Part shown: positions 10 to 61,063 of the stretch, piece after piece | Layout of the letters: each line of letters opens with the position of its first letter | How positions within the stretch are numbered: the stretch's first letter is position 1 | NCBI RefSeq assembly: GCF_028641065.1 | Contig: NC_073400.1 | Span: forward strand, 5,332,001 to 5,396,000 | DNA length: 64,000 nucleotides | From: Leucoraja erinacea | Taxonomy: Eukaryota | Direction: 5' to 3' | Notes under the pieces: generated by a model | What the model was told of the DNA's origin: nothing | Databases searched by the model: none | The model's input: only the letters and a program-made list of their open reading frames with translations | Program-made: the position numbers and the translations under genes

Positions 10-98
10 GAGAGACACAAGATGCTGGAGTAACTCAGCGGGACAGGCAGCATCTCTGGATGGAAGGAATGGGTGACGTTTCGGGTCGAGACCCTTCT
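10..98 (-). mobile_element. Penelope-like element (PLE) terminal-repeat fragment, hammerhead truncated
   Basis: Matches the window's recurrent repeat (GACACAA..TGCTGGAGTAACTCAGCGGGACAGGCAGCATCTCTGGA..GTGACGTTTCGGGTCGAGACCCTTCT). Confidence 0.75.
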
Positions 99-99
99 A

Positions 100-1633
100 A
101 TTTGTAATCCTTCAGATAAATCATTTCCCCTTGAACAGTGGTACCCAAATACAGAATTCAGTATATGAGCAGTTCCCTCTTTATACAGTATCTATGCCAA
201 TGTATAACAAAGCAACGAAGAAAAGCACCAAACTCCAAGTTTACACAGAAATGCAAGAAACAAACAAACAACAGCAAATAGATCTTGATGCAAGTTAATG
301 GTACTTGCTGGGTGGGCTCTTTACGATAACTTAGATTTGCCACTATATCTTTAGATTGAAATGTTATGCATTGGATCATAAATAGCATCATGGGTCTGTT
401 ACAGTTTTAGGATGCTTCGTGCTCAGGTCAAGGTCGTGTGTCTGTACATATCCTTCACTCCAGCCAAACCGCACCATTGGGGCTAGATGTTCCCGATTCT
501 CAATAGCCCTTCTGTGAAAATGTGCTTCGTAATGTCACTCAGGCGCTGGGCTCTCAGTCTAAGATTACTTTCTTGAGTGATCTCTATCAGGAGGCAGAAC
601 TTTAAATATTCAGGGCATGGAGTCCATCCCGTTTTTTTTTCTCTCACTTTAATTAGAAAAAAAAGTTTCTCTGTGAAATTACAAACAAGATACTTATGTG
701 GGATGTCTTAAAACTACAGTACAGTGTATAATGCAACTGTTTGCATCAACCTAGACTGCAGGAATAGCACTTGGAGTCTGGCAAATATTAACGTACTGGT
801 AGCAGTGTAAGAATTATTACAATATTTAAAAAAAATTAGACCATAAAAAAGTACAGGCGAGTTGCACTATTGAAATCAGCAGCAGCAAACCAGAGCTTAA
901 CCTTACTCCCAATGTCGTTACAGACATCCCTTTACAGTTTGAAGGCTGTAGCTCCTGATATGTTCAAATCAACAGATAGTCATATCCCAATAGGTTTCTT
1001 TCCTTCACACTCTCGCTCTCTCTCGCTCCCTCTCACACACACACACACACACACACTCTGCTATCCTTTCATAGCTAATGTCCATAGTGCAGGTTGTCTA
1101 GTTAATGCAGTTACACAATTGCCTTTAGAAAGTGCAAGCCCTTGTTTTCTGGTACAGTATGCAGCTTCACATCCCTCCGAATGATCGCAAGGAGCAGTCA
1201 GCAGCTTTTCCACTTATTAATAAGGCATTGACATACCAATAAAAAAAATAAGAATTACCAGGCTGGAGATACTAGTTGCATGTGGCTGATGCTACGGGGA
1301 GATCCTCATTACTTGACAGCTATAGGAGCCACGTCCTTCATTTTATAATGTCTCTTTTCAATGGGCAATTGCACAGTTCCATTTAAAATAAAACATTGCA
1401 AATTGTAATGTTCAGGATTTATGCTTAGATTGCTATTCCCCCATTGAAAAGGAATATGCGGTAATTTACTGAACATGTCCAATGGTTCAAAATGGTCCCC
1501 TGGGAGGTGTAGTCCACCTTAGTGCTTTGCAGAGTGTTAACTAAAATGAAAAGCCATGCAGCTAAACTACAGCTCCCAAAATGCCACGCGCTTCCACGCA
1601 TATCCCATATTAAGACAGCGCTGCTCATTGTAA
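100..1633 (-). other. Probable wnt2b 3' UTR / downstream unique sequence (end not defined)
   Basis: Mostly repeat-free, AT-rich sequence after the stop codon, with a (CT)/(CA) microsatellite at ~1010-1058. No unambiguous polyadenylation signal was assigned. Confidence 0.45.
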
Positions 1634-1863
1634 TCAAGTCTGATCCAGCCACTCTGCACGTTTCGGTGCTTTGCAGGTGTGGAAGTCGACTGTCTCCTGG
1701 CATTCCTTGCACTTGACGGCACAGCACCAGTGGAACTTGCACTCGCACTTGGTGACGCGTGCAACCCGCGTTGTGTCATAGCCCCGGCCGCAGCACATCA
1801 CTTCACACCCATCCATGCCCCTGGAGAACTTGTTGCAAACTCTCCCGGCTGTGCCCAAGGACC
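1634..1863 (-). CDS. wnt2b: wnt2b coding exon 5 (230 nt to TGA)
   Basis: TTTTTGCAG acceptor 1872-1864. Encodes [10 protein letters not shown]...[11 protein letters not shown]...[16 protein letters not shown]...[15 protein letters not shown]. The AEWLDQT C-terminus is characteristic of WNT2B rather than WNT2. Exon phases join into one 393-aa frame. Confidence 0.97.
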
Positions 1864-2848
1864 CTGCAAAAAGACAGTGAAGAGGAGATCGTTAACGATG
1901 GGTGGGTCTGGTTTGACATACAAAGCATTCCGCTGGTAACAGAGTCACAGAGAGTCACAGACCACTCTTATCCCAGGAAAAAAATTTACACATTTTCTGT
2001 ATAAACAGAAGAATTGGGGAAATTTGGGGGGGGGGGGGGGGGGGGGGGGAATTGATTCCTATACTTCTTTCATGACCTTCGGAGAAAGACAAACACTTAA
2101 GACCCAGTGAACTTCCCTTGAATTGAGTCATCGTCTTTAAGTAAGAAATGCGATGACTAATTTGGCTTTGTAAGATCCCAGAAGCAGCTATTTGATACTG
2201 ACCAGATAATTCTTTGTAACTATACTCTGAGACAATTTACTTTCTATTTACTAGAAAAAAAAATCCTCTGGCACTGCTATTGGTTTAGATCTACCTTCAG
2301 ATTTCTGGAGTGGAAACAGGAATCTCCATAATTCCAAGCAAGAGTCCTATTTACTGATCCACAGCCAACCAGAGAACATTAAGGTTAATATACTGTGGTG
2401 TAGATGCATGCTTCATAAACCATTCAGTATTGGTATAACCTAGCATTGATATGGACGGCAAACTTTCTGTTAAACATCAATCCATAGGAACATCAGTGGC
2501 AATTAGTCAAGGCTGAGTCGTGCTCAGTAAAGCAATTCCCTTGTATTTAAATGGAATCATAACATGAAATCTTAAGACATTGGAGGATTTGAAAAAGCTA
2601 TTTGTTCCAGGCCAATCCCCCTCATTCTCCCATAGTCTGATTATAGCATGGTCAGCCTCGATTGAAAATATCCTTCTGCCTTACCGAATCTGTTTATTAT
2701 CGTCAACATTTTGAAAATAAAGTTCCTCCTAGTCATCTCTTCCAAATGTATTAATTACTATTATATGCATGTCTCCAGTCGTCGCAGTTTTAACTAATGG
2801 AGCTTAAGGGTGATTAGAAATTAGGCAAGAAACAAAAAATGATCATTG

Positions 2849-3603
2849 AAACATAGAAACATAGAAATTAGGTGCAGGAGTAGGCCATTCGGCCCTTCGA
2901 GCCTGCACCGCCATTCAATATGATCATGGCTGATCATCCAACTCAGTATCCCGTACCTGCCTTCTCTCCATACCCCCTGATCCCCTTAGCCACAAGGGCC
3001 ACATCTAACTCCCTCTTAAATATAGCCAATGAACTGGCCTCAACTACCCTCTGTGGCAGAGAGTTCCAGAGATTCACCACTCTCTGCGTGAAAAAAGTTC
3101 TTCTCATCTCGGTTTTAAAGGATTTCCCCTTTATCCTTAAGCTGTGACCCCTTGTCCTGGACTTCCCTAACATCGGGAACAATCTTCCTGCATCTAGCCT
3201 GTCCAACCCCTTAAGAATTTTGTAAGTTTCTATAAGATCCCCTCTCAATCTTCTAAATTCTAGAGAGTATAAACCAAGTCTATCCAGTCTTTCTTCATAA
3301 GACAGTCCTGACATCCCAGGAATCAGTCTGGTGAACCGTCTCTGCACTCCCTCTATGGCAATAATGTCCTTCCTCAGATTTGGAGACCAAAACTGTACGC
3401 AATACTCCAGGTGTGGTCTCACCAAGATCCTGTACAACTGCAGTAGAACCTCTCTGCTCCTATACTCAAATCCTTTTGCAATGAAAGCTAACATACCATT
3501 CGCTTTCTTTACTGCCTGCTGCACCTGCATGCCTACCTTCAATGACTGGTGTACCATGACACCCAGGTCTCGCTGCATCTCCCCCTTTCCCAATCGGCCA
3601 CCA
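2849..3603 (-). mobile_element. CR1-clade (HER1-like) LINE, 5'-truncated, young copy
   Basis: ORF2 C-terminus RDLGV...LVRPHLEYCVQFWSP...RRLRGDLIETYK...TRGHSL in an open frame, followed by a 3' UTR and (TTCTATGT)n tail. Confidence 0.95.
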
Positions 3604-4289
3604 GTTGAAGTTAGTGTTGGAATATTTTCCATAGGAAATTGAATTGGTAGAAATATATCCTTTGGACAACTGTGTAAACCTTGCGGGGATTTCAACAGAA
3701 TGATACAAAGTGTAAATTGAGGATCAATTATTGAGTTCAGAAGATTGAAAGGTGATGTAATCGGGATATTTCAAACTGGATGTGATATAGATGATAGGAA
3801 GAAATTATTTCTCTTAGTAGGCAGTTGAAGAAAAAGGTGAATGGCATAATCCGAACCGAAAACCAGTTATTCAGGAATGAAATCAGAAATCACATCTTCA
3901 CATAAAGGCTGAAATACTTTTCCTCAAAAGTGCGTGGGCTCTGGTGGGATTTTTCATGAATCAGACCAAAATGTTAATTTCAGTTAATGCCATTGGTCAA
4001 AGATGCATAAATGATCCATGACCTGATTCAAGAGCAAGATTGGGTGCTCTATCGATTCCATGTGATATATTGCAAATTTACACCCAGCAATATTGTACCA
4101 TAAATGGTGAGGAAGAAGGGGGAACATAGAGAAAACAGACTGAGTAGCTAAACATCCATTGTTGGGAAAATACCAACGTCTATTGTAAAGGCTGTCTGAA
4201 CAGGATTCCTGGAAAATATCAACAGGATTTGACAACGTGGACATGGATTTATGAACGACGACCTGCTGATGTTTGTTGAGAATATAGCT

Positions 4290-4609
4290 AGACGTATAGA
4301 TATGGAATAGATAGCCGTGAGTCAACTGCCAGCCCACCAGCCATGAGTGAGTGAGCTGCCAGCACAACAGGCTTGAGTGACTGAGCCGCCAGCCCAAGAA
4401 TCCATTTGGCCCGCAATGTCCATTCTAGCCCTCTGGAAACTAGTCCCTTCAGCCCACAACACCCATACTAGTGCTTCAGAAAGCCCCCCCCCCCCCCCCC
4501 CCCCCCCACCTCACTGACCACCAATATTGGAATTGGTGGAGAGGTGGAATATTGCTTTGGGAGACCAGCCCTCCCGTGTGATGCTGAGACCCAACGGGTC
4601 CCACTTAGT
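4290..4609 (+). mobile_element. Non-autonomous element with a Helitron-like 3' hairpin
   Basis: Short internal repeats (GAGTGA..CTGCCAGC x3), a poly-C tract, and a terminal hairpin TGAGACCC-AAC-GGGTCCCA followed by CTTAGT. Confidence 0.45.
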
Positions 4610-5045
4610 AAGATCATAAAATCATACATCATAAGAGATAGGTAGAATTAGGCCATTCAGCCCATCTACTCTGCCATTCTCTCCCTCCTAACCCCATTTT
4701 CCTGCCTTTTCCCATAACCCCTGACACCAGTACTAATCAAGAATCTATCTATCTCTGCCTTAAAAATATCTATTGACTTGGCCACCAAAGCCTTCTGTGG
4801 CAAATAATCCACAGATTCACCACCCTCTGACTAAAGAAATTCCTCCTCATCTCCTTCTTAAAGGACCGTCCTTTAATTCTGAGGCTATGACCTCTAGTCC
4901 TAGACTCTCCCACTGGTGGAAATGTGCTCTCCCCATCCACTCTGTCCAAGCCTTTCACTATTCTGTATGTTTCAATGAGGTCCCCCCTCATTCTTCTAAA
5001 CTGCTGCAAATAAAGGCCCAGTGCCGTCAAACGGCCCAGTGCCTG
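4610..5045 (-). mobile_element. CR1 LINE 3' fragment
   Basis: FRRMRGDLIETYRIVKGLDRVD...SRTRGHSLRIKG motif plus 3' UTR. Confidence 0.9.
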
Positions 5046-6089
5046 ACAAGTGGACAAAGAACCAATACGTGCACAAGATAAGAACTATTCCACTGCTAGT
5101 CACTTCTGGATTCATGAATAGATTCCAAAGCAGAGCCTCATTCAGTTTGATCAACCTCATGTTCTCCCTTTCATCTTTATCTGGTTGTCACTTGAATGCA
5201 GAATTGGAGAACTCAAGATCGGAACTACTGTAAGAAACCTGAAAGGAAAGTAAAAGTAGAATTTGTTCAACTCTACACAGATGATGATAGTCAATGCTGT
5301 GTTGAGCTGAATAAATTACTGGAATGGGATAGAGACTGCAGTGTTCTGAGTAGACACAAAGGATCTTCCATATTGTGGAAGTTATCGAGAATGTTGTTCA
5401 TGTAAACGAATTGAGATGGCGAGATTGGATAAATATTCGACAAGAGCAACTTGTCATTGTGTTTAATAGTGTGGAAAGAAAATCAAGGTAGGATACAAAT
5501 TACACTGCTTGCTGGCTATCGGCCACTGGAGCCTCCCGACCACAACCAGAGTCATTAACGTGCCTGAGTTGAGTCGTGGATGGAGGGGCTGGTCAGAAGA
5601 GCAGGTATGCTGGGAATTGAGGCTGTTGTTCCAAATGTGCTTTGTTCTTCCTAATGTTCTCATTAGGCATTTCTGGATTATCGCACACAGTTCCCACTTT
5701 ACCAAGCTCGTTTTCCAAATTGAAGCAATATGTGTGTGTTAAATTTAAACATTAGAAAGTCAACATCTGGAGCTGAGTGCATTTTTTTGTCAGATGTGAA
5801 ATCTTTGATCTAACACTTGAATTGATCAGTTGCCACTATGTAGGCTTCTCTTTAGAAGGTGCATTACATTCAAAGCCTGCAAGGCCCGATGGAATTGTTT
5901 GATATGCCAAACCTTCCCCAAGGTGGTCCTGTGAACGTAATGACTCCAATTCTTGCACTTGTGCCAATTTATCATAAGAACCAGCAAATTACAAAGGTTA
6001 CAATACACGCCAGATGCATTGCACTGAAATGATCAACTAGATAGAAGTGTAGGTCTCAGTCCAGCAGAAATTCTTCTGTACCCCAGTAA

Positions 6090-6993
6090 TGGCCCTGTCC
6101 CACTTTCCCAAGTTACTCACGAACTCTCCCGAGTTTTCCCCTTGATTCGAACTCGGGGAATGTCGGGTAATATCGGTAGTGAGCTCGTAGGAGCCCGTAG
6201 GAGTCCGTAGATGTTTCGTAGGGGCTCGTAATGCCAGCCGTAGGAAGTCGGGGCATCAGGTAAAGGGCCTGTCCCACGAGCATGCGACCTGCATGCGACC
6301 TGCATGAGGAAAGCGTGACCAAACCGGAAGCGGGGGCCGCACGGATGTCGAGTGATCCCCGTACAGGGCCGGTCCCACCAGCATGCGCCTGCTTGCGGCG
6401 AGCGCGACCAAACCGAAAGCGGGGGCCGCGCGGAGGTCGAGTGAGTGACGTGAAGTTCGAGCGAAGTCCGCGGGAAGTTTGCGCGTGATGTACGGCGTAG
6501 AGACGCCCTTACGCCGGTTGCAAGCGCGACCTAACGTGGTCGCTTGGGCCGTACAGCTTCGTGGGGCCAGTCCCACTTTGATCGCCGGAGCCGTATGAAG
6601 TTGTGCGGAGCTGGTCCCGACATCGCGCGGGGCGCCGAAAAACTGACCGTGTTCAAAAATTCCGCGCGGCAACGGCGTAAGGGCGTCTCTACGCCGTACA
6701 TCACGCGCAAACTTCCCGCGGACTTCGCTCGAACTTCACGTCACTCACTCGACCTCCGCGCGGCCCCTGCTTCCGGTTTGGTCACGCTTGCCGCATGCAG
6801 GTCGCATGCAGGTCGCATGCTCGTGGGACAGGCCCTTAAGTCGGGACGTTTTTTCAACATGTTGAAAAATGTCCACGAGTTAAAAAAATAGCCCCGAGTA
6901 CCTACGAACGGCTATTACCGAGTTCTCCGAGTTCGAATCAAGGGGAAAAGTCGGGGGAGTTCGTGAGTAACTCGGGAAAGTGGGACAGGGGCT
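6090..6993. mobile_element. MITE, PIF/Harbinger-type (outer element)
   Basis: ~70-bp imperfect TIRs (TGGCCCTGTCCCACTTTCCC.../...GGGAAAGTGGGACAGGGGCT), flanked by TAA at 6087-6089 and 6994-6996. Confidence 0.8.
6264..6836. mobile_element. Nested GC-rich palindromic MITE, PIF/Harbinger-type (inner element)
   Basis: TIRs AGGGCCTGTCCCACGAGCATGCGACCTGCATGCG / inverse, TAA TSD at 6261-6263 and 6837-6839, and long inverted arms. Confidence 0.85.
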
Positions 6994-7029
6994 TAATTCA
7001 TAGCTGGTGCTCTGGTCTAGGCATACAGA

Positions 7030-7404
7030 TAAGAACATAAGAAACTAGCAGGAGTAGGCCAATTAGCCCTTTTAGTTTGCTCGGCCATTCAACAAGATGG
7101 AGGGTAATCCCTCGCTCCTCCCTTGTAACTTAATTGTCTGCCAGCTTTAACTCTAAATATATTCAACAACTCCCCCTCTTCTGTTCTGTGAGGTGCAGAC
7201 CTCCAAAGGTTGGATCCATTATTGGAGGTGTGTCGGACTAGGAGACACAATTTCAGAATTAGGGGATGTCCATCCTGGTGAAAGTAAAACATGTAACTTA
7301 CCGCAATCTTAACTGGGCAACCACTTATTCTAAAATGAAGCCTAGTTATCCTGTCCTAGATATCCTGTTAAAGGGAATCTGTTCAGAATTAATTCTGTCA
7401 ATTT
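7030..7404 (-). mobile_element. Old CR1 3' fragment, interrupted by a V-SINE
   Basis: (ATAAGAAC)n tail, GCAGGAGTAGGCCA 3' UTR and a decayed ORF2 end. Confidence 0.6.
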
Positions 7405-7725
7405 GGGCGGCACGGTGGCGCAGCGGTAAAACTGCTGCCTTACAGTGCCAGAGACCCGGATTCGATCTTGACCAGGGGTTGCTGTCTGTGTGGAGTTTGT
7501 ATGTTCTCATTGTGACTGCTTGGGATTTCCCCGGGTTTTCCTATTTCTTCCCACATTCCAAAGACATGCAGGTTTCTAGGTTAATTGGCTTCGATAAAAA
7601 ATATTAAAAATTGTCCCTAGTGTGTAAGATATGTGTAAGTATGTGTGTATGGGGTGATCGCTGGTCGGCACAGACTTGATGAGCCGAAGGGCCTGGTTCT
7701 GTGTTGTATCTCAAAAGTTTAAAAA
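7405..7725 (+). mobile_element. HE1-like V-SINE
   Basis: tRNA-derived head (GGGCGGCACGGTGGCGCAGCGGTA..GGATTCGATC), V-domain (GGAGTTTGTATGTTCTC..TTCCCACATTCCAAAGAC) and CR1-like tail (GCCGAAGGGCCTG). Confidence 0.88.
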
Positions 7726-8146
7726 ATTCCCCTTAGAATTTCATATGCTTATAAATTGTAATGCTTTAATTTATAGGACAGACGTGCTACTTAAGAGGGA
7801 CGGGTGCTCTGATTTTGAGGAATGAATGCTATGAACTTGGGGTGCAGATGCTCCATGCAGAAGCAAATGTTCTCATCCGGGGGGGGGGGGGGGGGGGGCG
7901 GCTCTGTTTGTTCTTGGTGTACAGAAGCACAGAGCAAGCATGAACTAATGTTAAGGAGCACTGACTGTGGTGTAGGTCACTGATGTTCTGATCTAAGGTG
8001 CAGGAGCTTGGTTTATGGAGCAAATGCTCTAACTTGTGCAGGTGATGTGATATTGGATGCCAGTTGCTCCAATGTAAAAATGCAGATCCTCAGATGTCTG
8101 GGTGAAGGTGTTGCATTTTTAGCGACAAACCAGGGCATGACCTTTA

Positions 8147-8620
8147 TAGGCCTGTCCCACTTAGGCGATTTTTTCGGCATTTGCCGGCGACTGTCATAGT
8201 CGTAGAAGGTCGCATAAAAACCGGCGACTTGCGACAATGTCTACGACAATCTATGACAACCTACCACCTGGTCAACGTCAAGTTACGGGAAGCTACCGAC
8301 AACTGGCGACCCATTAGTACGTCCACCTACGACAACCTACGTCCATCTGCGACAAGCTACGACAAGGTACGAAACATGTCCGCGCAACTGAAGACAACTT
8401 AAGACGATTCAGTTGCCGGTACCTGTCACTGGTTGACGTAGGTAGTCACCAATGGAATTCACCAAAATCAGCCTACGCCATCCTGGCGACAAACTACGAC
8501 AGCACCTATGCCGGGAGGAGTCAAGTTACACTCATTGGCGTCAAGCCCACTATTGCTGACTGTCGGCGAAAGGTTTTGAACTTGTCAAAATCCTGCAATG
8601 GCCTGAAAAACACTACAATC
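8147..8620. mobile_element. Harbinger-type MITE, one TIR visible
   Basis: Starts AGGCCTGTCCCACTTAGGCG (same TIR family as above), with a CpG-rich body of CGACAA repeats. No right TIR found. Confidence 0.6.
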
Positions 8621-8715
8621 AAATTCCACCGAACTAGGGAAATACATGTTGTGATCTGGGGCTACAGATGTTAGAATCAGAGTCATAGAGAAATGCAGCA
8701 GGAGCTTAGTGGCCT

Positions 8716-8848
8716 TACCAACCAACTGTGGGCTGTGGGAGGAAACTGGAACACCTGGAAGAAACCTACACAGTCACAGGGAGAATGTACAAGATCCACA
8801 CAGACAGCACCTGAGGTCAGAATTGAACCAGGATCTCTGGCACTGCAA
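8716..8848 (-). mobile_element. V-SINE 5' part
   Basis: Reverse complement of the V-domain and tRNA head (TGTGGGAGGAAACTGGAACACCTGGAAGAAACC..GGGAGAATGTACAA). Confidence 0.75.
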
Positions 8849-9584
8849 TGGTTTTCTGATTCACTGGTGGAAATGCTCTGACTTGGGAGGAGGGAGTGGC
8901 TCTCTGTTGGGGTGATGAAGAGGCACAAATCCCCTTATCTATCTGGGGGTAGGCAAAGATGGTCTCCTCTCAGGAAACAGATGATGTGATCTCGGAGAGA
9001 AAATTCTCTGAACTAGAGTTTGGTCTTCTCTGAATTACAGATGCAGGTGGACTAATATAGATGCAGAGGTAGATGCGCTGGCATTCTGAGGAAATGCTGA
9101 GAACCTGGGGTATGGTTGTGGTGACATAGTGCTCTTGTCTAGAGAATGAGAAGCTCTAAGCTTGAGGTTCAGATAGTCTGATGTAAGGGCTCAGGTGCCC
9201 TGATGTAGAGGTGCTGGTGGTCTGGGAATCCCGGATGCTCTTATCTACTGGTGTAGATGCACTGAACAAGGTGCAGTTACTCTGATCCTCTTACATGGAT
9301 CTTTAGATGCTCTGTGGAGTGAATGCAGTTATCTTCAGGCAGAGTGTCACAAATGTTTGAAAGCAAAGTTGATGTCTATAAAATATAATAAAAAATGTTA
9401 GTTGACATTCACTATTTAATACCAAGAGCTGCTAATCAGTTTGTTTCTTTGGGTCCACAATGACTATTCCTGGTATCAGACTTTCAGACTAATGTGTGAT
9501 GGTATGCCTGTGTTTCCCAGAACCTAACCATCTGATCTCCACGTGCAGATTATAAAAACACTGCACAATTATGATCTTAGTTCT

Positions 9585-9797
9585 AAGATATGCACAAAAT
9601 GCTGGAGTAATTGTGTGGGACAGGCAGCATCTCTGGAGGGAAAGAACGGGTGACGTTTCGGGTCGAGACCCAAGGGTCCTGGCCCGAAACATCACCCATT
9701 CCTTCTCTCCAGTGATGCTGCCTGTCCCGCTGAGTTAATCCAGCATTTGGTGTCTATCTTTGGTTTAAACCAGCATCTGCAGATCCTTCCAGCACAT
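9585..9797. mobile_element. PLE-derived fold-back (inverted) terminal repeat
   Basis: Two inverted arms of the PLE repeat joined within hammerhead stem II (..GTCGAGACCC|AAGGGTCCTGGCCCGAAAC..). Confidence 0.8.
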
Positions 9798-10104
9798 AAT
9801 ATTATTTCCATCTTTTGTGTCACACTTTTACAAGAGGACTAGGAAAGACAATATCAGTGATGAGTTGATGATGTAGTTGTAACAACTGGAAAATTAAACT
9901 ATATAGAAACAAATTGTACCAAATTTACTGATGCAATATAACTTGCTTTTGCATGACGATTAAAAGTATTAAATGACCTCTTCACTTGTTTTATAAAATC
10001 TCATGCTAAAAATGGCCATAGTTTTCCATAGTAAGTTTTCATTTTAAAATGATGCTGACTCTAACTTTATGACTTTGCTTATGATTATATTTCTTTATGT
10101 CTCT

Positions 10105-10275
10105 CAATAGACAATAGACAATAGGCGCACGAGTAGGCCATTCGGCCCTTCGAGCCAACACCGCCATTCAATGTGATCATGGCTGATCATCCCCTATCAG
10201 CCATAATCACTGATCCTGCCTTTTCCCCATATCCCCTGACTCCGCTATCTTTAAGAGCCCTATCTAGCTCTCTCT
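10105..10275 (-). mobile_element. Short CR1 3' end
   Basis: (CAATAGA)n tail and CR1 3' UTR stem-loop. Confidence 0.85.
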
Positions 10276-11086
10276 ATCTCCATATTCATAACCAGAAATA
10301 CCAGGATCTTACAGCACAGTGGGAGCGAGAAGTTTAACAAATGCTCAGACAAGGTTCACAAATAGCTTGTTATTATTTAGTCAATAACATAAAAAGCACC
10401 AAAGCTTTATCCTGAGCCATCTAACTTTGTATTGTCTTTATTTATCATATGTACGCACTATCGTGTCAAAACCCCAACAAAGATGACTTTTCCTCCACAT
10501 TATTCCTGTGTACAAAGTTAGACTGGAAATGCAAAGGGCAAATTTTAAGATTTATTAAAGTGCTTGAGAGAATACATTTATTTTGTCATACAGCATAAAA
10601 GAAGACTGTTTGATTCATCATGCCTGTGGTGACTCACTGAAAGAACGACCTTATAGTCCCACTTTCAAAGTCCTGGAAAAGTCCCCCTTTTACAAACGCA
10701 CCTTTTAAAGTTACGCCTGCCTCCATTATCTTTAAGGCAGAGCAGGCCAGATCATTGCACAATGCATTAACATTACACTGAAATAATTCTCCTCAATTCC
10801 CCTTGGTTTCTTTTGGAGATGATCTTTAATTTGTGTCGTCTAGTTACAGACCGTGGGCCACTAGGAACAGTTTCTTTAGTAAGCCCCACTTAAAAATCCA
10901 TTCCATTCGATGTATAAACTATGTTAGCATGATAATGATATGATGATTTACTCTGGTTCACAAAAGTAACAAAGGGACACCAATGCAGGATTAGTGGGGA
11001 AAACACAAAGGACGAGTTTCTGCAGTATTGAACTTTCTATCACTAAGAAGCTTGAAAACCAATCATGGCTTTAGTACACATGACCT

Positions 11087-11597
11087 ATAACCATATAACA
11101 CCATATAACAATTTCAGCACGGAAACAGGCCATCTCGACCCTTCTAGTCCGTGCCGAACACATAATCTCCCCTAGTCTCATATACCTGCGCTCAGACCAT
11201 AACCCTCCATTCCCTTCCCATCCATATAACTATCCAATTTTTTTTTTAAATGATAAAAATGAACCTGCCTCCACCACCTTCACTGGAAGCTCATTCCACA
11301 CAGCTACCACTCTCTGAGTAAAGAAGTTCCCCCTCATGTTACCCCTAAACTTCAGTCCCTTAATTCTCAAGTCATGTCCCCTTGTTTGAATCTTCCCTAC
11401 TCTCAGTGGGAAAAGCTTTTCCACGTCAACTCTGTCTATCCCTCTCATCGTTTTAAAAACCTCTATCAAGTCCCCCCTTAACCTTCTGCGCTCCAAAGAA
11501 TAAAGCCCTAACTTGTTCAACCTTTCTCTGTAACTTAGTTGCTGAAACCCAGGCAACATTCTAGTAAATGTCCTCTGTACTCCCTCTATTTTGTTGA
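11087..11597 (-). mobile_element. CR1 LINE 3' fragment (different subfamily)
   Basis: ORF 11230-11634 IEGVQRTFTRMLPG...RRLRGDLIEVFK...TRGHDL, with a (TTATATGG)n tail. Confidence 0.92.
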
Positions 11598-11873
11598 CCT
11601 GTTCAAATAAGGGCTGAATCTGGCTGAGATCCATGGACTATGCAATTACCTGTCATTCTACTACATCTCCATGGCACAATGCCCACTAACATTCATAACA
11701 ATTCCTTCTTCCCCAGCACTGTTCTCCAAACACTGTGTAAAGAAATACAGCCTGGATCGCTCACAACTTTGATTCCCTTCAGTTACTTTGCATCTCCCTC
11801 ACCATATCACAACATTGCAGCCGGAAATTTTACTGACACCACCAAATTAGGAGGCTGGGGAAAAGGAATAGGT

Positions 11874-11903
11874 GACATTTCGGGTCGAGATCCTTCTTCA
11901 GAC
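11874..11903 (-). ncRNA. Minimal type I hammerhead motif in a PLE repeat
   Basis: Minus strand reads GTCTGAAGA-AGGATCTCGACCC-GAAATGTC. Confidence 0.5.
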
Positions 11904-12339
11904 TGAGAGCCATGGGAAATGGAAAACATGTAGATTGGCTCCGTCCGGAGTGGAGTAGTCGTGTCAGTTCCATTTGTCTACTCTTTCCTTCTTGCCCTAA
12001 ATATTAGGTTTAAAGAAAGATCCCTGACTCGAAACGACATCTGTCCATTACCCTCCACAGATGCTGCCCGACCAGTAGGACATTTATTAGCCCTGAAGAT
12101 CTGTGCCAATTCAATCCCCCTTTTTAATTTAGTTTATTGTCTCATGTACTGAGACTCAGTGAAAAGCTTTTTTGAAAAAGTTCTGAATTGAGGTAGTGAG
12201 AGAGCGCTTTATATTCAACATATGTTGTTTAACCTTCCCTTTAAACATATGTGCCTGCTGCATCAACATTGGCAAATAGGAACAACTTTACTATATTTTC
12301 ATAATCTTAACCCAGCTTATTCAGTGAGGTCTGGAAGCA

Positions 12340-12437
12340 TGAAGATCGACACAAAATGCTGGAGTAACTCAGCAGGACAGGCAGGCAGCATCTCCGAATA
12401 GAAGGAATGGGTGACTTTTCGGGTCGAGACCTTTCTG
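12340..12437 (-). mobile_element. PLE terminal-repeat fragment
   Basis: Same recurrent repeat, truncated before CTGAAGA. Confidence 0.7.
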
Positions 12438-14740: not shown

Positions 14741-14749
14741 GCCTTAATG

Positions 14750-43062: not shown

Positions 43063-43167
43063 TAACATAGGCAAACATGACAGTGAACATGAGCTAATTG
43101 TATTTATTTAATTCTTAATGTATTCATTTGACAATGCCACAGGACAATGAGCTAAATGACCAAAGAG

Positions 43168-47850: not shown

Positions 47851-48689
47851 TGGCCTGACCAGCGAAGCCTCTGCTTCTGCCTGATTCCCATGTCTTTGAG
47901 AATGTCTGTGTTTGAGAATCCATCACTCTTCGATCTGAATATGTTTGAAGCAACTGATTATCTAAGCAGTGTATTCCAAAGAGTGAGAACATTCTGAGTG
48001 CAGTCTTGTGTGCCTAGAAATTCTCTCCTGGTCTGGAGAGGGAGACACAATGGCAAGTGCTACTCTGCCTCTGAAATTCACTCTGTTGATACAAAGCATT
48101 GTGCTGTGAGGAAGGGTTCTTTCTGCTGTGGCCAACTAGCTGGTGTTTTATGCATGGGCCCAAATATTAAGCCTCGGTGTAAATACACAGTGTTATAAAA
48201 CCTACCAATTAAATGTAACTTGTAAAACGCGTAAATTGTTTCCTAGTACAACTGATGACTACAAATCCAACACGGTGACTAAAGCAAGGACAGGATGTAA
48301 AATAACCCCAAATATGGAATGCATTATATGTTCCCAATGCAACAATATCTCAGTAAGGACAAGTATATGTCGAGATCCATTCGGTCGATGATCTGTGATA
48401 ACTCCCTTTCCTTAAAAAAAATTCTGAACACATAGTGAATCTGAAAGAATTTATAATAAAGCCTAAATGTAGATATTAGAATGATTTTGCAACAAAGGAA
48501 ATGGAAAAGCAGACGGATATGGGCATCTACAGAATCTGGCACATGTATAAATACCCCTATGTATAAAGTCAAAGGCGGACTCGCACAAATAAAGTTTTAC
48601 ATAAGTCCAGAGTATATTCTCCTAGTAAAAGTTATTATAACTGATGTTGGAATATGTTTTATATTCTGTATTCATGGTTTCATGGTTTG

Positions 48690-49142
48690 AAACACACTTA
48701 CAGACACTCACACCTGGACACACATATACACGCAGACAGACAGACACACACACACACATATACAGACAGTCGCACACACATATACAGACACTCACATAAG
48801 GATGCACATATACACACAGACACACACACACGCATACAGACACTTAAATATGGACACACATATGTATACATGCAGAGAGACACACATGCACACACATACA
48901 TGCAGACAGACAGACTGACAGTCACACACACACATACAGACACTTATATATGGACACACATACGTATACATGCAGAGACACACATGCACACACATACATG
49001 CAGACAGACAGACTGACAGTCACACACACACACATACAGACACTCACATATGGACACACATATACATACAGACAGACAGACACACACACACACACATACA
49101 GACAGGCACACACACAGGCAGACACCTACATATGGACACACA
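48690..49142. repeat. Compound (CA)n / CA-rich low-complexity tandem array
   Basis: Imperfect ~90-100-bp higher-order units of CACA/CAGA/CATA running into the gap. Confidence 0.9.
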
Positions 49143-49400
49143 NNNNNNNNNNNNNNNNNNNNNNNNNNNNNNNNNNNNNNNNNNNNNNNNNNNNNNNNNN
49201 NNNNNNNNNNNNNNNNNNNNNNNNNNNNNNNNNNNNNNNNNNNNNNNNNNNNNNNNNNNNNNNNNNNNNNNNNNNNNNNNNNNNNNNNNNNNNNNNNNNN
49301 NNNNNNNNNNNNNNNNNNNNNNNNNNNNNNNNNNNNNNNNNNNNNNNNNNNNNNNNNNNNNNNNNNNNNNNNNNNNNNNNNNNNNNNNNNNNNNNNNNNN
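49143..49400. other. Assembly gap (N)
   Basis: Run of N. Confidence 1.
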
Positions 49401-50212
49401 AAATGTTCTCTCCTGTAGAAGCAGCATGAACAATGAAAAATGTTGACATTTCTCAATCAATTGCATGTGAAGGAAGGATTTCCAACATCACTGAAGGATT
49501 TTGCTCATGGGGTCTCCGTGCGTTTCCTGGTGAGAAACTGTCAACAATATCGGAGACTGGGTTATCTCCGAAATGACCTGAAATTCAATCACCTCGACAT
49601 GGGTGTAGGTTATATGGATTCTGTGTTTTACTCAAACAGAAGCACATCAAGGGCATTTACAGGCTGTGCTGTAGATAATGCGGAACTGGCATGTAAGGCA
49701 AGATCTGAAGTGTTGAATGTGTTTTTTAATTCGAGGGATTTTCTGTCATTGTAACTCTGAGGAATCTTTGACTATAGTAATATTAAAAATCACGTCACAA
49801 TTTGGAATAGAAAATAAGATAAAAGCAACAGAGAGAAAGTCAAAAGGGGGGGAATGGCAAACTCTGGTGATCAAATGTAATTTAAGAAACTTCTCTTAAG
49901 GGTTGGGGGAAATGCAATATCGATTGATGGGATATGGTGAGCATATTTGTGGAGGGAATTTGACATATTTGGAATCAGTGACGAGTCTTAGTTAGAAAAA
50001 TCATAGAGTCATGGAGCATGGAAACAGGTCCTTCAGCCAAACGCTCCATGCAGACCAAGATACCTAACCAGACTAACCCAACTTGATTGCATCTAACCAA
50101 TATCCCTCCAAACCTGTCCCATCCGATAGGAGAGCAAAGGATATGGAGATAGACACAAAAATCTGGAGTAACTCAGCAGGACAGGCAGCATCTCTGGAGA
50201 GAAGGAATGGGT

Positions 50213-50240
50213 GACGTTTCGGGTCGAGACCCTTCTTCAG
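50213..50240 (-). ncRNA. Consensus minimal hammerhead core within a PLE repeat (50145-50245), sense to wnt2b intron 1
   Basis: Minus strand reads CTGAAGA-A-GGGTC-TC-GACCC-GAAAC-GTC: intact core, perfect stem II, palindromic ACGT loop III and GUC cleavage triplet. Stem I is weak. Confidence 0.6.
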
Positions 50241-51706
50241 ATTGGTTAGGGATAAGGGAAACAAGATATATGGAGTGCAGGTAAACAACGTCAGGAATAC
50301 GAATAAAGGAGTAATGTTGAGGGAGACACAAGAGGCTGCAAACTGCTGGAGGAACTCAGGAGGTCAGGCAGCATTTGTGGAAGGAAATGGACAGATGACG
50401 TTTCAGGTGGGGACCATTCTTTGGACCCTCTGAGAGTTAGTGGACAGGAGCATTATGTGTGATCTGTGGCATTACGGACAGACGAGGAGGGTGGAGATAG
50501 GGTACGTGGGAAGAGCAATGGAGAAAGCAAATCACAGTGAAGAACATAAACAGAAGCGTTTGAATCACGAGTCACTAAGATTAAGATTAAGGCAAATTAA
50601 TTTTAAAAGGTTGGAAATGAACAATCCTCGAATTGGAAGATCACTTGTGGGGAGACCAGGGCACAATCAGGTTCAACGTGTGAGTGCTTGGTTGTGATGG
50701 AGTTGCTGGGGGGGGCATAAACTGTGAGTTATATCCCAATTATCCCACAGCAGGGAGATGCTCCCACAAACTGCAATGTGATAATCATGCAGTCTACTTC
50801 TGGGAATGCTGCTGAGGATATACATTGGGCAGGATTCTGGAGAAAACGACCTGTTTTTCTTCAAAACAGAGCCACTGAGTTCTTGATGGACACACCAGGG
50901 GCAACTGGGGCTTCCACCTAACGCCACCTCTAACATAGCACCACCTCCTCAATCCTCCTTAAGTCTCTGGAGTGTCACTTTAACCCATGACCTTCTGATT
51001 CAGAGGCAAGTGTGGTACTGACTGAGCCTTGAGAGAAAGGGTGGGGGGAATTAGGCTCGAGGACCCCAGTTATAGTGCAGCTATTTATAATTTTGCCCTG
51101 AGATGTCATGGGGCTGGCGATCAAAATATGCTCAAACAAGGAGTATGAAACATTACAACGACAATTACATCATTTCCCCAAATGGTCTCTATGTGAACGA
51201 CCTTGCGCATCTTAACATATCAATGTAACCTGGCCCTTTCTCCTTACATACCCAACTCCCCACCATCTGTGATATGCATCGCAATTATCTAGCAGCAAAT
51301 TTCACATTATTACATTGGGTAAAAATATTATTTCTGATTTCTGTATGGGAATTTATAACCATTGTCTATCGTATAAAGGAGATCCCCAGAAGTCACCTTC
51401 CCCACATACTCACTCATCTCTATGTCTGCTCTATCGAGCCCTTTCACTAATACAAAGATACTTGTCGAGTCACCTGTCAGCCTTCGCATTTTAAGAAGAC
51501 AATTTCAGGGCCATTCAGTCTTTACAGGTAAAAGTTCTCCGTTTCAGAATCACCCACTCAGATTTATTTTGCATCTTTACCCACGCCTCGAAATCTTTCT
51601 CATAATGTAGTTATTATTTTTAAATAATGGAAATGTCTACCTGTAAACCTTCCAGCTAAAAAAAAACAATGGACTCTGGTCCTGAATGTAAATGATTTGG
51701 ACTTAC

Positions 51707-51894
51707 CACCAGGATGAGTCCACTCGCGGTGTCAGTGTGAGCAGTATTAATATGAAGGCAAGATAAAGTCTGGAGCAGGTTTTAGTCCCATCGCTGCTGG
51801 TTGTCCTATTAATCTGTCTCACACCTTCTGTGCCTGAAGTATGGGACACTTTCCAATAGACTGTGCACTCTTCAGCTCTGGACAGCCCCGACAT
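51707..51894 (-). CDS. wnt2b: wnt2b coding exon 1 (188 nt; N-terminal extension and signal peptide)
   Basis: ATG at 51894. Encodes MSGLSRAEE...RLYLAFILILLTLTPRVDSSW+TG, matching the WNT2B signal region (human LLLTLPARVDTSWW). Phase-2 GTAAGT donor at 51706-51701. Confidence 0.92.
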
Positions 51895-53046: not shown

Positions 53047-53897
53047 AACATACACACATGTATACACACTCACATGCACACACACACACACACGCATACT
53101 CACACAAACACACACACACATGCACACATACACACATACTCACATACAATACAATACAACACCATTTATTTGTCATTTGAACCTCACATGAAGTTCAAAC
53201 GAAATTTGGTTTCTGCAGCCATACAAGAAAAGAACCAAGACACACACCAACACAATTGACACAAACATCCATCACAGTGAATCTCCTCCTCACTGTGATG
53301 GAAGGCAAAGTCTTGTCTCTCCCCTGCTCTCCATTCCTTTCCCGAAGTCAAAGCCCCCGGCGGGCGCTAGCAATGCACACATGCTCGCACACACGCACGC
53401 ACACACACGCGCACATGCACACAAGCATACTGGAAGTCACGCACACATGCATGCACGCACACATGCACGCCAGCTTTTTTGTGTAACCTGCATGCACGCA
53501 TGCACATGCACTCAAACACACGCATGCACACGCACACATACACATACTGAAACACACGTACAAACACACCATGTACACACACACACACTCATGCACACAC
53601 ACGCGCACATGCACACAAGCATACTCGAATACATGCACACATGCATGCACGCACAGTGTTTAAGAGGGAACTGCAGATGGTGGAGAATCGAAGGTTACAC
53701 AAAAAAGCTTGAGTAACTCAGCGGGTGCAGCAGCATCTATGGAGCGAAGGAAATAGGCAACGTTTCGGGCCGAAACCCTTCTTCGTCTGAAACACAGTAC
53801 GTGTGTTTTGTGTAACCTGCATGCACGCACACATGCACACGCATACTCAAACACACGCATGCACACGCACACACACACGCACATACACATACTCAAA
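53047..53897. repeat. CA-rich array with inserted retroposon end (53148-53370) and PLE repeat (53658-53790)
   Basis: (CA)n/(CATG) repeats, with block TTTGTGTAACCTGCATGCACGCA at both ~53478 and ~53807. Confidence 0.85.
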
Positions 53898-55438: not shown

Positions 55439-56957
55439 GTACAGACTGTGGTCTGTACTTGCAACAATTCTTTGCCCAAGTTTGCCATCAGTCCATAGCA
55501 AACTTTCCACATTAGGTGCTGTTGTGCTGCAGCAAGTGAGAAATTGAAAACTTGCGAACTCCACACAGACTGTGCCGAAGCTCAAGGTTGTAACAAGGTC
55601 TCTATGCTGTGGCTGCCCTGTGCATTGATGGACTGGAAGCTGAAGGTTCTCAGATGGGATGTTGTATGGGGCCACACAGTTCAAATCTACAGCTGTCAAA
55701 ACTGTACCATGAACATGTATTACTTGCTCCCATCATATGGGCTTCCAGCTGCTCCTCACCTCTGGCCTCTAATCTCACTCCCAATCCTCTGACCCAATTT
55801 CCACCCGTATCTCAGGCCTTGAAATGTCATCCTTTAACCCCTTATTTACCACCAGCAACTTTCCAGTCTCATCCCAACTATACCAGCCAAACTTCTCGAC
55901 TGGCCCCCATATAGAATACAGAATGCTGGTCTGGTTCTTCCACCGACTTGCATTACTCAAGCTACCTTAGGCAAGTGGACGCCCCATCACAATCGGAAAA
56001 AGGTAAGTACTAGCTTTATGCATTGAATAATAATAATAATAATAAATTTTATTTAATGGGCGCCTTTCAGACATCTCAAGGACACCTTACATAGTAATCG
56101 GAATAAAAACATATAATCGGAAGAAAACAAGTAATAAAGACATCACAGAGACACAAATTAAAAACAGAATTCAATCCAAAAACAGAAAATCAAAAACACA
56201 GTGTGAAGAATGCCGAAGTGAAGTCCAACAATTATTGTTAGCGAAGATAGACACATAAAACTGGCGGGTCAGGCACAATCTCTGGAGAAAAGGAATATGT
56301 CTGGGAGGGGGGGCTTACTCCAGCTTTTTGTGTCGATCATAATATCATAGGTGATCAAGGTTGTAGAATTAGGCCATTCGGCCCATCAAGTCAATCGTGG
56401 CTGATCTATCTCTTCCTCCTAACCACATTCTCCTGCCCTCTACCCGGACATCTAGAGGAATGAATATAGAGATATAATCATCTTCTGCCAATTCAACGCT
56501 GATAACAGTGCTGAAGTTATACCAAATCTCAAGGCGGTTGGTTATGGTCTGTTTTACCAAGTGAAGGAGTCTAGAACTAAATGGTCTGAAGAAGGGTTTT
56601 GACCCTTAACGTTGCCTATTTCCTTCGCTCCATAGATGCTGCCTCACCCGCTGAGTTTCTCCAGCATTTGTGTCTACCTAGAACTAAATGGCATTGATTT
56701 AAGATGAGAGGATACAAATTTAAAGGGGACCTGAAGGACATCTTCACACAATGTGTGTTGGGTATGACACTTGTATATGGTGGGGAAATGAGCCAAATGC
56801 AGGTAAGTGGGATAAGCTCAGATAGGCTGCCTGGTTGGTGTTGATGGTTTGGGTCTGGTCCCATGATGTATAATTCCCGTGATGAGTCTGTGTCTTTGGA
56901 AGGACACAACACCTCAGCCTCTCAGAAACATTGCACAACACATTTTATCCAGTTTGT

Positions 56958-57649: not shown

Positions 57650-58213
57650 TAGAGACACAATTAACTGTAGATGCAGGAAACTTGAGTAAGCCACAAAGGG
57701 CTGGTGTAACTTTACAGGTCAGGCAGCGTATCTGGAGGACACGGATAGGAGAAATTTTGGGTCAAGGGCCTTCTTCAAATTGATTATGGTGGTGGGAGAA
57801 AGCTGGAATAGAGGTGGAGGCGGGAGAAAGCCCGGCAAGTGATAGGTGGATACAAGTGAGAGTGGTTTGAACGGCCAAATGCTGGAGATGAAAAGGAGGA
57901 TGTCAGATAGAGAGAGAGAGAGAAGGTAAACGCAAATCCAGAGGAAGGGATGAGGGGAGGGGAAACGGGGTGCAGGATAGGGGGAGAAATGTGTGCACAC
58001 AGGGGTGGGGGGGCACAAGGAAAAGAATGGAGAAAAAAAAGAGGGGGGGATGTTACATAAAATTGAAGAAACCAATTCATACCATTGGGTTGTAAACTAC
58101 TCGAGTGGAATCTGAGGTGCTGTTCCTCCAGTTTGTGTTTGATCTCACTCTGGCAATGGAGGAGTCCCAGAACACAGAGATCGGTCGGTATGGGAATGGG
58201 TAGGAAAGTTAAA
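57650..58213 (-). mobile_element. Penelope-like element 3' end (GIY-YIG C-terminus, 3' UTR, terminal repeat)
   Basis: Minus strand encodes FNFPTHSHT..LCVLGLLHCQSEIKHKLEEQHLRFHSSSLQPNGMN, then a pyrimidine-rich UTR and degenerate hammerhead (TTTGAAGAAGGCCCTTGACCCAAAA). Confidence 0.8.
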
Positions 58214-59773
58214 AGGGAAAAGAAAATTATAAGATGGGAGGCTTGATGCTGTGTAGAGGGGAGGGTTTAATGGAGGGGCTTTAAAGGTGGAGAGCTGTAG
58301 GCTTAGCGTGATAATCCCAGAGCAGTTGAGTGGTTAATGATGGGCGAGGGGAATGCAAAGCTACATGATACCAGTGACGGAGGTGATTCAAGGCCTTTCA
58401 AAGTGTACATTTCTTTGCGAAGAACAAACGATGACGTCCATATTCGTGACGTTTTATGAAACTGATCCCACATAAAGAGGAAATGTATCTTCTGGCCGTT
58501 TGAGAAAGAAAGCCAAAGAGGGTTATGATGCACAGAACTGCTGAGCTATGTAATGCTACGGGACATACTTAGCTGCTTGACGTATACGGACAATCTGGGC
58601 ACTGAAGACAATGTGAAGGTCTCATCAAATGACCGATAGACTATGTATGGGAGTGGGTGCAGTCATAGCAGACAGCTGCTGCTGAGTTCGCCATATGAAG
58701 TCCCAAGCTTAGAATACAAATAATGAGACGTAGTTATTCCCCAGATGATCAAGTCTGCTGGGAATAGAACTGAAACAAAACCTGTTAGTGGATTGTTCGA
58801 ACCAACCGCAATGTGTTCTTCCAGACACCAGGGGGTGGAACGCTCGGAATATTCCTGTATAATTAGCAACCTACCATGAAGATAAATAATCTCTGCTTAT
58901 GACTATTATGATCCATCAGCCTTGGCTACAGCTAATGGTTTTCTCAAACTGGCAGCTGTCACTCAATGGGTAACATTCACACCTCTGAGATCAGCACGTA
59001 AAATCTAGACCGACACTCCCTGCCCCAGAGTGTAGACAGGGTGATGAACTGGTGGAGTGATCTCTTATATATGAAACGCTGAACTGATATGGTGCCTAAT
59101 ATCTCAGGCGGGACCCCTCAATGTCCCATTGCACTCATTTAAAGAACAGCTGAGGTGTCCCTCCAGGCAAACATTCATCAAATCAATATTATTAAGGATC
59201 AGATTACCAGATCAATGCTTTCTGTGGAGTTTGTTCACTGACCATATTGGCTAATGAGTTTTCAGTATTATGACAATGATAATGCTACAAATATACTTCA
59301 GTGGTTCTCCCTCCAAGGACAGTGGTTCTCCCTCCTCTCTGACTGCCCCCCTTCTGTGTTTTGTCTACTTCAGCGTTTCTTGCTCGCTTTGTAATGAACT
59401 TAGCTCATGAAAGATTCCATAAAGACAGAAGTTTTCAAAAATGGTTCAAGAATAACGTCAGGGTTTCAAGAATGAATTAAAAAGTCTATCTATGGTTTTA
59501 ACCAGCATATGCAATTCCTTCCTACCCGTTTTACAGTTGTGTGTGCAGGTTTAGGAAGAAACAGTAACCATTGATTCAGTGTATCGGTATCTGAATACAT
59601 TTCTTCTGGTCGTATGGTTCAAATATTGTCTATAAATTCCCAGTAATCTGGTAACGTGACACTGACCTAGTTCTTCCAGATGTGAAAAGTGGAGTAAATG
59701 GATCAACTTAATGAGGTAGAGTTTTATAATCAGAAATATCATATAAGGAGAAAACTTTATAGATTCCCTGTGA

Positions 59774-60094
59774 TGAGCAGGGTGGTGCAGCGGTAGAGTT
59801 GCTACCTCACAGAGCCAGAGACCTGGGTTCAATGCAGACTACGGGTCTTGTCTGTACGGAGTTTGTGCATTCTCCCCGTGAACTGCGTGGGTTTTCTACG
59901 GGTGCTCCGGTTTCCTCTCACACGCCAATGACATTCAGGCTTGGAGGTTAATTGGCTTTGTAAAATTATAAATTGTCCCTATTGTGTAGGATAGTGTTAG
60001 TGTGCGGGGATCACTTGTAAACGTGGACTCGGTGGACCAAAGGGCTTGTTTCCACGCCATATCTCTAAACCAAAATAAACAAAACTAAACTAAA
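59774..60094 (+). mobile_element. HE1-like V-SINE
   Basis: tRNA head, V-domain and (TAAAC)n tail. Confidence 0.88.
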
Positions 60095-61063
60095 TGTGTA
60101 GGAAGGAACTGCTTGGTTTAAACCAAAGATGGACACAAAATGCTGGAGTAACTCAGCGGGACGGGCAGCATCTCCGGAGAGGAGCAATGGGTGAGGTTTT
60201 GGGTCGAGACCCTTCTTCAGACTGTATCAGAGGAAAGGGAAAAGAGAGATATAGAAGGTGAAGTAGAGTAGAGAGATAGAAAACAAATGAATGAAAGATA
60301 TGCAAAAAAGTAACGATAATGAAGGAAACAGGCCATTGTTAGCTGGTTGCTAGGTGAGACCAAGAAGCTGGTGCAACGGGTGCTTGGGTGGGGGAGGGAT
60401 GGAGAGCGGGAATGCAGGGGTTAATTGAATTTAGAGAAATTAATATTCATACCACTGGGTTGTAAGTTGCTCAAACGAAATATGATATTCTCGTTTGGCC
60501 TCACTCTGACAATGGAGGAGGCCTAGGTCAGAAAGGTCAGTGTGGGAATGGGAAAGGAAATTAAAGTGTTTAGCAACTGGGAGATCAGGTAGGTCCAGGC
60601 GGACTGAGCGAAGGTGTCCAGTGAAATGATCGCCCAGTCTATGTTTGGTCTTGCTGATGTATAAGAGTCCACATCTTGAACAATGGATACAGTAGATGAA
60701 ATTGGAGGAGGTGCAAGTGAACCTTTGCCTAACCTGAAAGGACTGTCGGGTAAGTCCCTGGACAGAGTGGAGGGAGGAGGTATGGGGACAGGTTTTCCAT
60801 CTCCTGTGGTTGCAGGGGAAAGTAACTGGGGAGTGGGTGGTTTGGGTGGGAAGGGATGAGTTAACCAGGAATTTGCGGAGGGAACGATCTCTGCGGAAAG
60901 CGGGAAGGAGTGGAGATGGGAAGATGTAACTAGTGGTGGGATACCATTGGAGGTAGTGAAAATGTCAGGATTATGTGTTGTGTGCGACGGCTGATGGGGT
61001 GAAAGGGAAGGAATAGTGGACTCTGTCTCTGTTGGCGACTGCAATGGCTGATGTTATTTGTCT
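60095..61063 (-). mobile_element. Penelope-like retroelement (Neptune-type) 3' fragment with GIY-YIG endonuclease remnant
   Basis: My translation of the minus strand ~60965-60421: AFRRDRSLRKFLVNSSLP..FPCNHRRWKTCPH..FQVRQRFTCTSSNFIYCIHCSRCGLLYISKTKHRLGDHFTGHL..LPVAKHFNFLSHSH..(frameshift)..IFRLSNLQPSGMNINFSKFN*. Followed by UTR and the hammerhead-bearing repeat; flanked by AAACTAAACTAAA (60082-60094 and 61064-61076). Confidence 0.88.

Follow-up and report, generated by a model that had tools for sequence, protein, structure and literature searches.

The closest described relatives of the sequences considered here are the minimal hammerhead motifs in the pseudo-long terminal repeats (pLTRs) of Penelope-like elements (PLEs). 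In PMC4209133, these motifs have the core CUGANGA with an extra nucleotide, a G10.1-C11.1 pair, a helix II of 4 base pairs (bp) closed by a loop of 4 nucleotides (nt), a palindrome and a short helix I. They are mostly single motifs of truncated PLEs, with some opposite-strand pairs, and lie soon after the open reading frame (ORF). The published minimal motifs were inactive as monomers and weak as dimers (PMC4209133), an anole PLE hammerhead needs protein and no cleaved ends were found in anole RNA reads (PMC11167929), and the role of PLE hammerheads has been stated as unclear (PMC8557442). Insertions of endonuclease-bearing (EN+) PLEs are described as showing strong 5' truncation, an inverted 5' copy, a tail that is usually at one end and two starts of reverse transcriptase (RT) (PMC8557442, PMC11167929). 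Animal non-LTR retrozymes also derive from PLE pLTRs and carry a type I hammerhead; one chondrichthyan is among their hosts, with a mean consensus of 363 bp (10.64898/2026.07.22.740005). PLE expansion has furthermore been reported in the introns of the whale shark (10.1101/443036). Here we describe a dense repeat with close likeness to these systems in and around the wnt2b gene of Leucoraja erinacea, within a stretch of 64,000 nt from contig NC_073400.1 (positions 5,332,001 to 5,396,000; hereafter the window, with positions counted from its first letter).

We consider it probable that this repeat is the hammerhead-bearing 3' end, or pLTR, of a Penelope-like retrotransposon that likely belongs to the Neptune clade. 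It is represented by about 40 short decayed copies, likely left by the element's own RT when it stopped early, and these are predicted not to cleave inside wnt2b. The repeat resembles the pLTR hammerheads in each of the features listed above and the EN+ PLE insertions in their truncation, inverted copies, one-end tail and two RT starts. It differs from the set in PMC4209133 in its batoid host, there being no chondrichthyan in the published alignment as far as it was accessible. In kind it is ordinary transposon debris of a described sort, and what is new, within the literature searched, is its occurrence in rays and skates; no description of this family was found in that literature, and Repbase, Dfam or the supplements of 10.64898/2026.07.22.740005 may list it.

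The hammerhead core pattern, with at most one mismatch allowed, has 11 matches in the window against 0.48 expected, a number reached by 0 of 100 shuffles. Among these are 11877-11901(-), 14318-14342(-), 17478-17502(+), 45071-45095(+), 46955-46979(+) and 50216-50240(-), so that the repeat and all six motif positions named in the original prediction are real. A search of the whole window by nhmmer, with the copy at 50140-50245 as query, gave 40 matches (37 at E<0.01), and blastn gave 38. An earlier count of 25-30 copies was right about abundance and too low in number. The 40 matches cover 3266 bp, or 5.2% of the non-N sequence, bearing out the very high local density that had been claimed. Forty matches in 62 kb lie far above the density implied by the 4,000-9,000 intact motifs per genome of coelacanth and Xenopus, with the qualification that most of the copies here are decayed and that all were counted in a single window. 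The untruncated short copy is a body of ~95 nt that starts at the motif's CUGA; on the strand reading CUGA the motif lies at the 5' end of short copies, and not at the end of the repeat as first described. An older subfamily, with other bases after the cut site, was also seen, at 12010(+), 13922(+), 17809(-), 24840(+), 30179(+), 42349(+) and 50424(-).

The Penelope origin put forward in the original prediction is supported by ORF remnants that continue into the repeat. Two decayed ORF ends, at 61033-60424 and 58185-57955 on the minus strand, resemble RT- and GIY-YIG-bearing proteins of sharks and rays at 50-58% identity (tblastn; P0001-P0006 for the first). Both GIY-YIG remnants found in this way (2/2) run via a pyrimidine-rich untranslated region (UTR) into the repeat on the same strand. 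The RT core is truncated away in the window remnants, and a direct Pfam scan of the window missed these decayed PLE sequences; the relatives' proteins carry RVT_1 and GIY-YIG, with weak Pfam scores. Close relatives have a CX4CXXC linker before the endonuclease, one Cys of which is mutated in the window copy, and a CX2-5CXXC linker between RT and EN is a Neptune/Nematis feature (PMC8557442). End coordinates are given here relative to C3 of the hammerhead core, which places the predicted cut at +28. With the long copies as queries, homology upstream of C3 extends for 839, 437, 291, 130 and ~105 nt in five copies, for ~25-35 nt in a few others, and not at all in most. The repeat had been proposed as a distinct non-autonomous family; this is not supported, because the repeat forms the very 3' end of copies that bear the ORF, and its own 5' ends vary. 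In the Stegostoma protein P0004, the annotated C-terminal residues resemble a translated hammerhead motif, hinting at an ORF-UTR-ribozyme order in a shark, seen as protein.

Related elements provide a view of the motif at the family level. Of 491 related Penelope loci found in metagenome contigs by protein alignment, 80 were retained. In 47 of the 80 the match extended into the C-terminal region and was followed by 500 nt or more of sequence, which made them eligible for analysis. A minimal hammerhead was found on the ORF strand in 18 of the 47, located 45-245 nt past the match; the opposite strand had one in 47 loci, and none appeared in 940 shuffles. The motif of these relatives matches the Neptune hammerhead of Acropora digitifera (Fig. 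S3, PMC4209133), and their 3' ends also fall into two classes. The same design, a minimal type I hammerhead with a palindrome for helix III, had been assigned to the window repeat and holds. The core CUGANGA, the extra nucleotide, GAAA and NUH are the majority in 15 aligned core-covering copies; helix II has G10.1-C11.1, and the palindrome lies at 15.1-16.1, for a helix III formed by a dimer.

The structure first drawn from the window had the core and helix II right and overlooked helix I, which is essential for type I. Its stem II with a 2-nt loop, which should not be able to close, is better drawn as 4 bp with a 4-nt loop, as in the published Acropora motif. In the second subfamily, a differently paired stem II had been read as structural conservation; the change is a one-sided one from U-A to a U.G wobble, with no covariation in the window, and real covariation of helix II appears only against distant relatives. 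When 10 window copies that cover the core, picked by hand, are aligned with 10 of the 18 hammerhead-bearing loci, compensatory changes between window and relatives appear at pair 2 of helix I, with C-G (9) against G-C (9), and at pair 4 of helix II, with C-G (9) against U-A (6) or U.G (3). Paired cells amount to 89%, against no more than 42% when the helices are slid, with 93% for helix II and 97% for the palindrome. Helix I of the dominant subfamily has 2 bp and the one compensatory change, its third pair being broken in 9 of 10 window rows. The A. digitifera motif has 3 bp, and motifs with a 2-bp helix I have been published for Culex, D. virilis and Oikopleura (PMC4209133). Two older-subfamily copies, at 12010 and 50424, could form a helix I of 4-5 bp with wobbles. 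An Rfam scan listed 22 matches at E<=5, none of them to a hammerhead family; its AEV_CRE and miRNA matches were rejected as chance hits on palindromes and CA repeats, all below gathering scores. No exact match to the motif turned up when viral and metagenome contigs were scanned. On sequence comparison, the family-level motif is likely a hammerhead homologue.

The window copies have two classes of 3' end, at ~+95 and ~+128 nt from C3, the latter with a tail of ~33 nt and present in 13 of the 40 matches; a PLE tail of 30-40 nt has been traced to two internal RT start sites (PMC11167929). Exact target duplications of 9-15 bp flank six insertions (3 of 9 head-to-head pairs and 3 of 21 solo copies tested), compared to a chance background of 0.2-2.5% at those lengths. 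Matches within CA repeats were excluded from this count, as was an 8-bp duplication at 50240, which is at chance level (19%). The 5' ends defined by duplications vary, lying at -1, about -6 and -30.

Nearly half of the matches (18/40) form nine head-to-head pairs. The tail is found on exactly one arm in 7 of the 9 pairs and on both arms in none (p ~0.02 against the solo rate), and in four of them (29735, 33471, 37185 and 45071) it is the shorter arm that has the tail and the longer that lacks it. A simple fold-back of one complementary DNA (cDNA) was rejected for these 4 of 9, in which the tail of the shorter arm is absent from the longer. Double priming is therefore the more suitable model for the pairs, because a tailed shorter arm cannot be a fold-back copy of an untailed longer arm; the PAc protein extends both target strands in vitro (PMC11167929). 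Compared to described EN+ PLE insertions, the arms are often 35-130 nt and make palindromes of ~100-240 bp that resemble miniature inverted-repeat transposable elements, with clear target duplications. Three pairs, at 29735, 33471 and 45071, have a common 3-nt microhomology junction, which by chance makes a helix I of 4-5 bp at 33471 and 45071. A function for this restored helix was rejected, since the ~90-bp hairpin dominates (folded for 45071, where it is predicted with z -16). An inverted pLTR copy was also seen upstream of the truncated ORF in related invertebrate-type Neptune loci (L006, L016, L022, L031, L034, L042, L043, L056, L067, L068 and L071), with 5' ends from -110 to +26.

A likely model for these insertions begins with a target nick by the GIY-YIG endonuclease, as suggested by PLE biochemistry (PMC11167929). 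RT would then start at one of two internal sites, giving a copy with or without the tail, and would usually stop within 100-160 nt, mostly in or just 5' of the ribozyme. Where both nicked strands were extended, two short cDNAs would be joined head-to-head. With a 2-bp helix I and a palindrome for helix III, the master ribozyme would cut only as a dimer and probably with the help of PLE protein, and the inserted copies would decay as passengers in introns. The crowding of 5' ends at the ribozyme could result from RT stalling on the structure, from a transcript start or splice site near C3, from ribozyme cleavage, or from a short master RNA.

An alternative that we regard as unlikely, yet worth serious consideration, is that priming takes place in the 5' pLTR of full-length mRNA, with RT running off the 5' end of that mRNA, whether this is a start site, a splice junction or a ribozyme-cut end. 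The sole difference from the model above lies in the pLTR that serves as template. On a pLTR-ORF junction RNA, PAc RT begins at an internal position, ~111-118 nt in (PMC11167929). A pyrimidine tract plus YAG, resembling a 3' splice site, ends 1 nt before C3 at 11901(-), 46531(-), 46955(+), 53786(-) and 60220(-), and in D. virilis Penelope an intron ends at helix I (PMC4209133); splicing could supply another helix I strand. Run-off from a cut end would also suit the four pair arms (of 18) that begin at +27 to +33, at or just past the predicted cut; three other 5' ends lie at the +15 microhomology. However, the cluster at the cleavage site is weak (p=0.04-0.22 in a 6-nt window), a 2-nt window with p=0.001-0.008 was set aside because it was chosen after looking, and 0 of 22 solo copies begin at the predicted cut. 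Nor was there a pile of read ends over the repeat in the RNA run X22, a weak negative given that such libraries show cuts poorly.

A second alternative, which we judge improbable, is a separate non-autonomous master RNA, retrozyme-like or similar to a short interspersed element, that is derived from the pLTR, starts ~4 nt before the core and borrows PLE protein. Non-autonomous PLE derivatives have been described (10.64898/2026.07.22.740005; PMC8557442), and many 5' ends of window copies fall at -1 to -8. Reads of related organisms also bear on this idea. Four of 22 listed runs were aligned to 59980-61060 at 80% likeness, and the aligned contigs (202,002 in X1 and 164,864 in X10) indicate many copies and are not a copy number. 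X22, a polyA RNA run of which ~6% was read, comes from the same organism as X10 (0.25 of words for X10). Its depth per direction is 1800-5400 over the repeat, equal in both directions, against 10-240 over the ORF and UTR, a ratio that is inflated by the diverged ORF reference copy. Joints in the relatives' contigs suggest head-to-tail units of ~95-110 nt, a further feature in favour of such a master. Arguing against it, the duplication-defined 5' ends differ from one another, other 5' ends reach -130, -291, -437 and -839, ORF-bearing copies carry the same body, and the pair junctions are of several kinds. TRF (46 rows in the window) gave no tandem array of the repeat unit and no tandem units with complete hammerheads, and tRNA gene calling on the window called none. 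The described retrozymes are tandem repeats with at least two complete hammerheads and are excluded from Xenopus introns, whereas the copies in the window lie in introns, singly or head-to-head, and are incomplete.

Several points nonetheless weigh against derivation of the copies from the 3' pLTR of a Neptune element by early-stopping RT. The Neptune label, likely on sequence grounds, rests on the linker and the ribozyme match. The covariation counts stem from two lineages and do not represent a large number of separate events. Core positions of the copies looked less diverged than the rest (5/121 vs 69/550), in 11 copies picked for a recognisable core, and the divergence test was set aside for this selection bias. 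The 5' ends are unevenly spread, with many at -8 to +8 of C3. Most reads of the relatives stop matching at -4 of C3, a point at which a short master RNA might truly begin; a variable upstream UTR also makes alignments stop there. Among the 15 joints listed (1104 more exist), five switch strand between -2 and -4 of C3, and seven suggest the head-to-tail units just mentioned, with the intervening letters unread.

As to individual copies, the strict core is intact in 6 of the 40 matches, many of the others being without the region through truncation. Core and palindrome are combined in three, core, palindrome and full helix II in one (50240), and core, helix II, palindrome and 2-bp helix I in none. 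A second hammerhead descriptor found two motifs in the window, with a helix I of 0 and 1 bp. In the predicted fold of 50240, the core and the 5' strand of helix II pair with sequence past the cut, and the probability of helix II is at most 0.01; an Acropora-type motif, in contrast, keeps helix II in its predicted fold. Since no copy holds a complete ribozyme, the copies are predicted not to cut wnt2b RNA. They are probably inactive as ribozymes, and there is no support for an effect on wnt2b.

The gene itself had been identified correctly, with exon 3 showing 99% identity to wnt2bb of Hypanus sabinus and 96% to Scyliorhinus. Between its start and stop codon lie 33 of the 40 matches, 16 sense and 17 antisense, with no depletion of sense copies in wnt2b (p=1.0). 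Sense copies do therefore occur in the pre-mRNA, as had been stated, but the named copies 17477, 45071 and 46955 are antisense, and the one cited at 53766-53782 is upstream of the start codon with C3/U4 lost. That the 16 sense copies are active ribozymes cutting or regulating the pre-mRNA is very improbable: 50240, which lies in intron 1, retains core, helix II and palindrome, but it has a 1-bp helix I, no complete sense partner for a dimer and a predicted fold that sequesters the core, the long hairpins of head-to-head pairs bury theirs, no strand bias is present, and the published motifs are inactive as monomers, weak as dimers or protein-dependent.

Coordinates are collected in the table. 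The window also contains an unrelated inverted repeat at 6263-6837, with arms of 93-129 nt at 95-96% that contain 11-nt tandem units, and a GC-rich 40-nt tandem repeat at 22356-22592 within a wnt2b intron. Remnants of the RT of long interspersed nuclear elements with RVT_1 lie at 61834-63328 (-) and 20608-21033 (+); further such RT remnants lie at 2943-3770, 11230-11637 and 35315-35755, and we take these to be CR1-like from their look. Four assembly gaps (38022-38652, 49143-49400, 52378-53046 and 53898-54060) total 1721 N, one of them just upstream of wnt2b exon 1.

Table. Coordinates of PLE remnants, repeat copies and the host gene in the window
Position	Strand	Feature	Details
60424..61033	-	PLE ORF end, 5'-truncated, decayed	Thumb, Zn-finger linker, GIY-YIG endonuclease; tblastn
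60101..60423	-	3' part of the same element	Pyrimidine-rich 3' UTR, core-mutated hammerhead motif (C3 60220), ~95-nt body, tail
57683..58185	-	Second, older PLE remnant	GIY-YIG C-terminus, 3' UTR, decayed hammerhead repeat (C3 57778)
50333..50805	-	Older-subfamily copy	~290 nt of upstream PLE homology
50141..50275	-	Best-preserved copy	wnt2b intron 1, sense; intact core, 4-bp helix II, palindrome, 1-bp helix I
46938..47075	+	Subfamily-2 copy	Intact core, helix II with one mismatch; antisense to wnt2b
53669..53790	-	Subfamily-2 copy	C3/U4 lost; upstream of wnt2b exon 1
56585..56677	+	Solo copy, subfamily 2	Starts 1 nt before C3; 14-bp target duplication
17472..17605	+	Solo copy with tail	10-bp exact target duplication (~15 bp with one mismatch)
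46404..46561	-	Solo copy with tail	Starts ~30 nt before C3; 11-bp target duplication; U4 mutated
33346..33577		Head-to-head pair	Tail confined to the shorter arm; 13-bp target duplication
44970..45165		Head-to-head pair	3-nt microhomology junction as in 33346..33577; ~90-bp hairpin predicted
34389..34595		Head-to-head pair	Rearranged junction; 15-bp target duplication
43159..43372		Head-to-head pair	Arms of different subtypes; 9-bp target duplication
9585..9790		Head-to-head pair	
14245..14411		Head-to-head pair	Short arm starts 1-2 nt past predicted cleavage site
29640..29850		Head-to-head pair, older	
37100..37252		Head-to-head pair without core	One arm starts at predicted cleavage site
56244..56345		Short head-to-head pair without core	
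6..42463 (span)		Other solo copies (nhmmer; several older-subfamily)	Projected C3 at 102, 11901, 12010, 12440, 13922, 17809, 18018
6..42463 (span)		Other solo copies, continued (nhmmer)	Projected C3 at 18094, 21235, 24840, 26679, 30179, 42349
1637..51894	-	wnt2b, five coding exons	51894-51706, 44437-~44200, 29086-28814, 17109-~16840, 1888-1637

Dense as they are, and with 5' junctions that can be read, the short copies could reveal if the template is cut or stalled by the ribozyme in vivo, and if double priming gives rise to inverted insertions; the palindromes would place long hairpins in host introns. A broader view, which we hold to be doubtful at present, is that ray and skate genomes contain a huge Neptune fossil record of perhaps 10^5-10^6 tiny insertions, in which the 5' ends map RT stops on the ribozyme, including its self-cleavage site, and the one-tailed palindromes record double priming by a dimeric RT-endonuclease. 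If true, this record may include its own ~100-nt non-autonomous master, and it would provide direct evidence, from the genome, of PLE hammerheads folding and cutting within the transposition complex in vivo.

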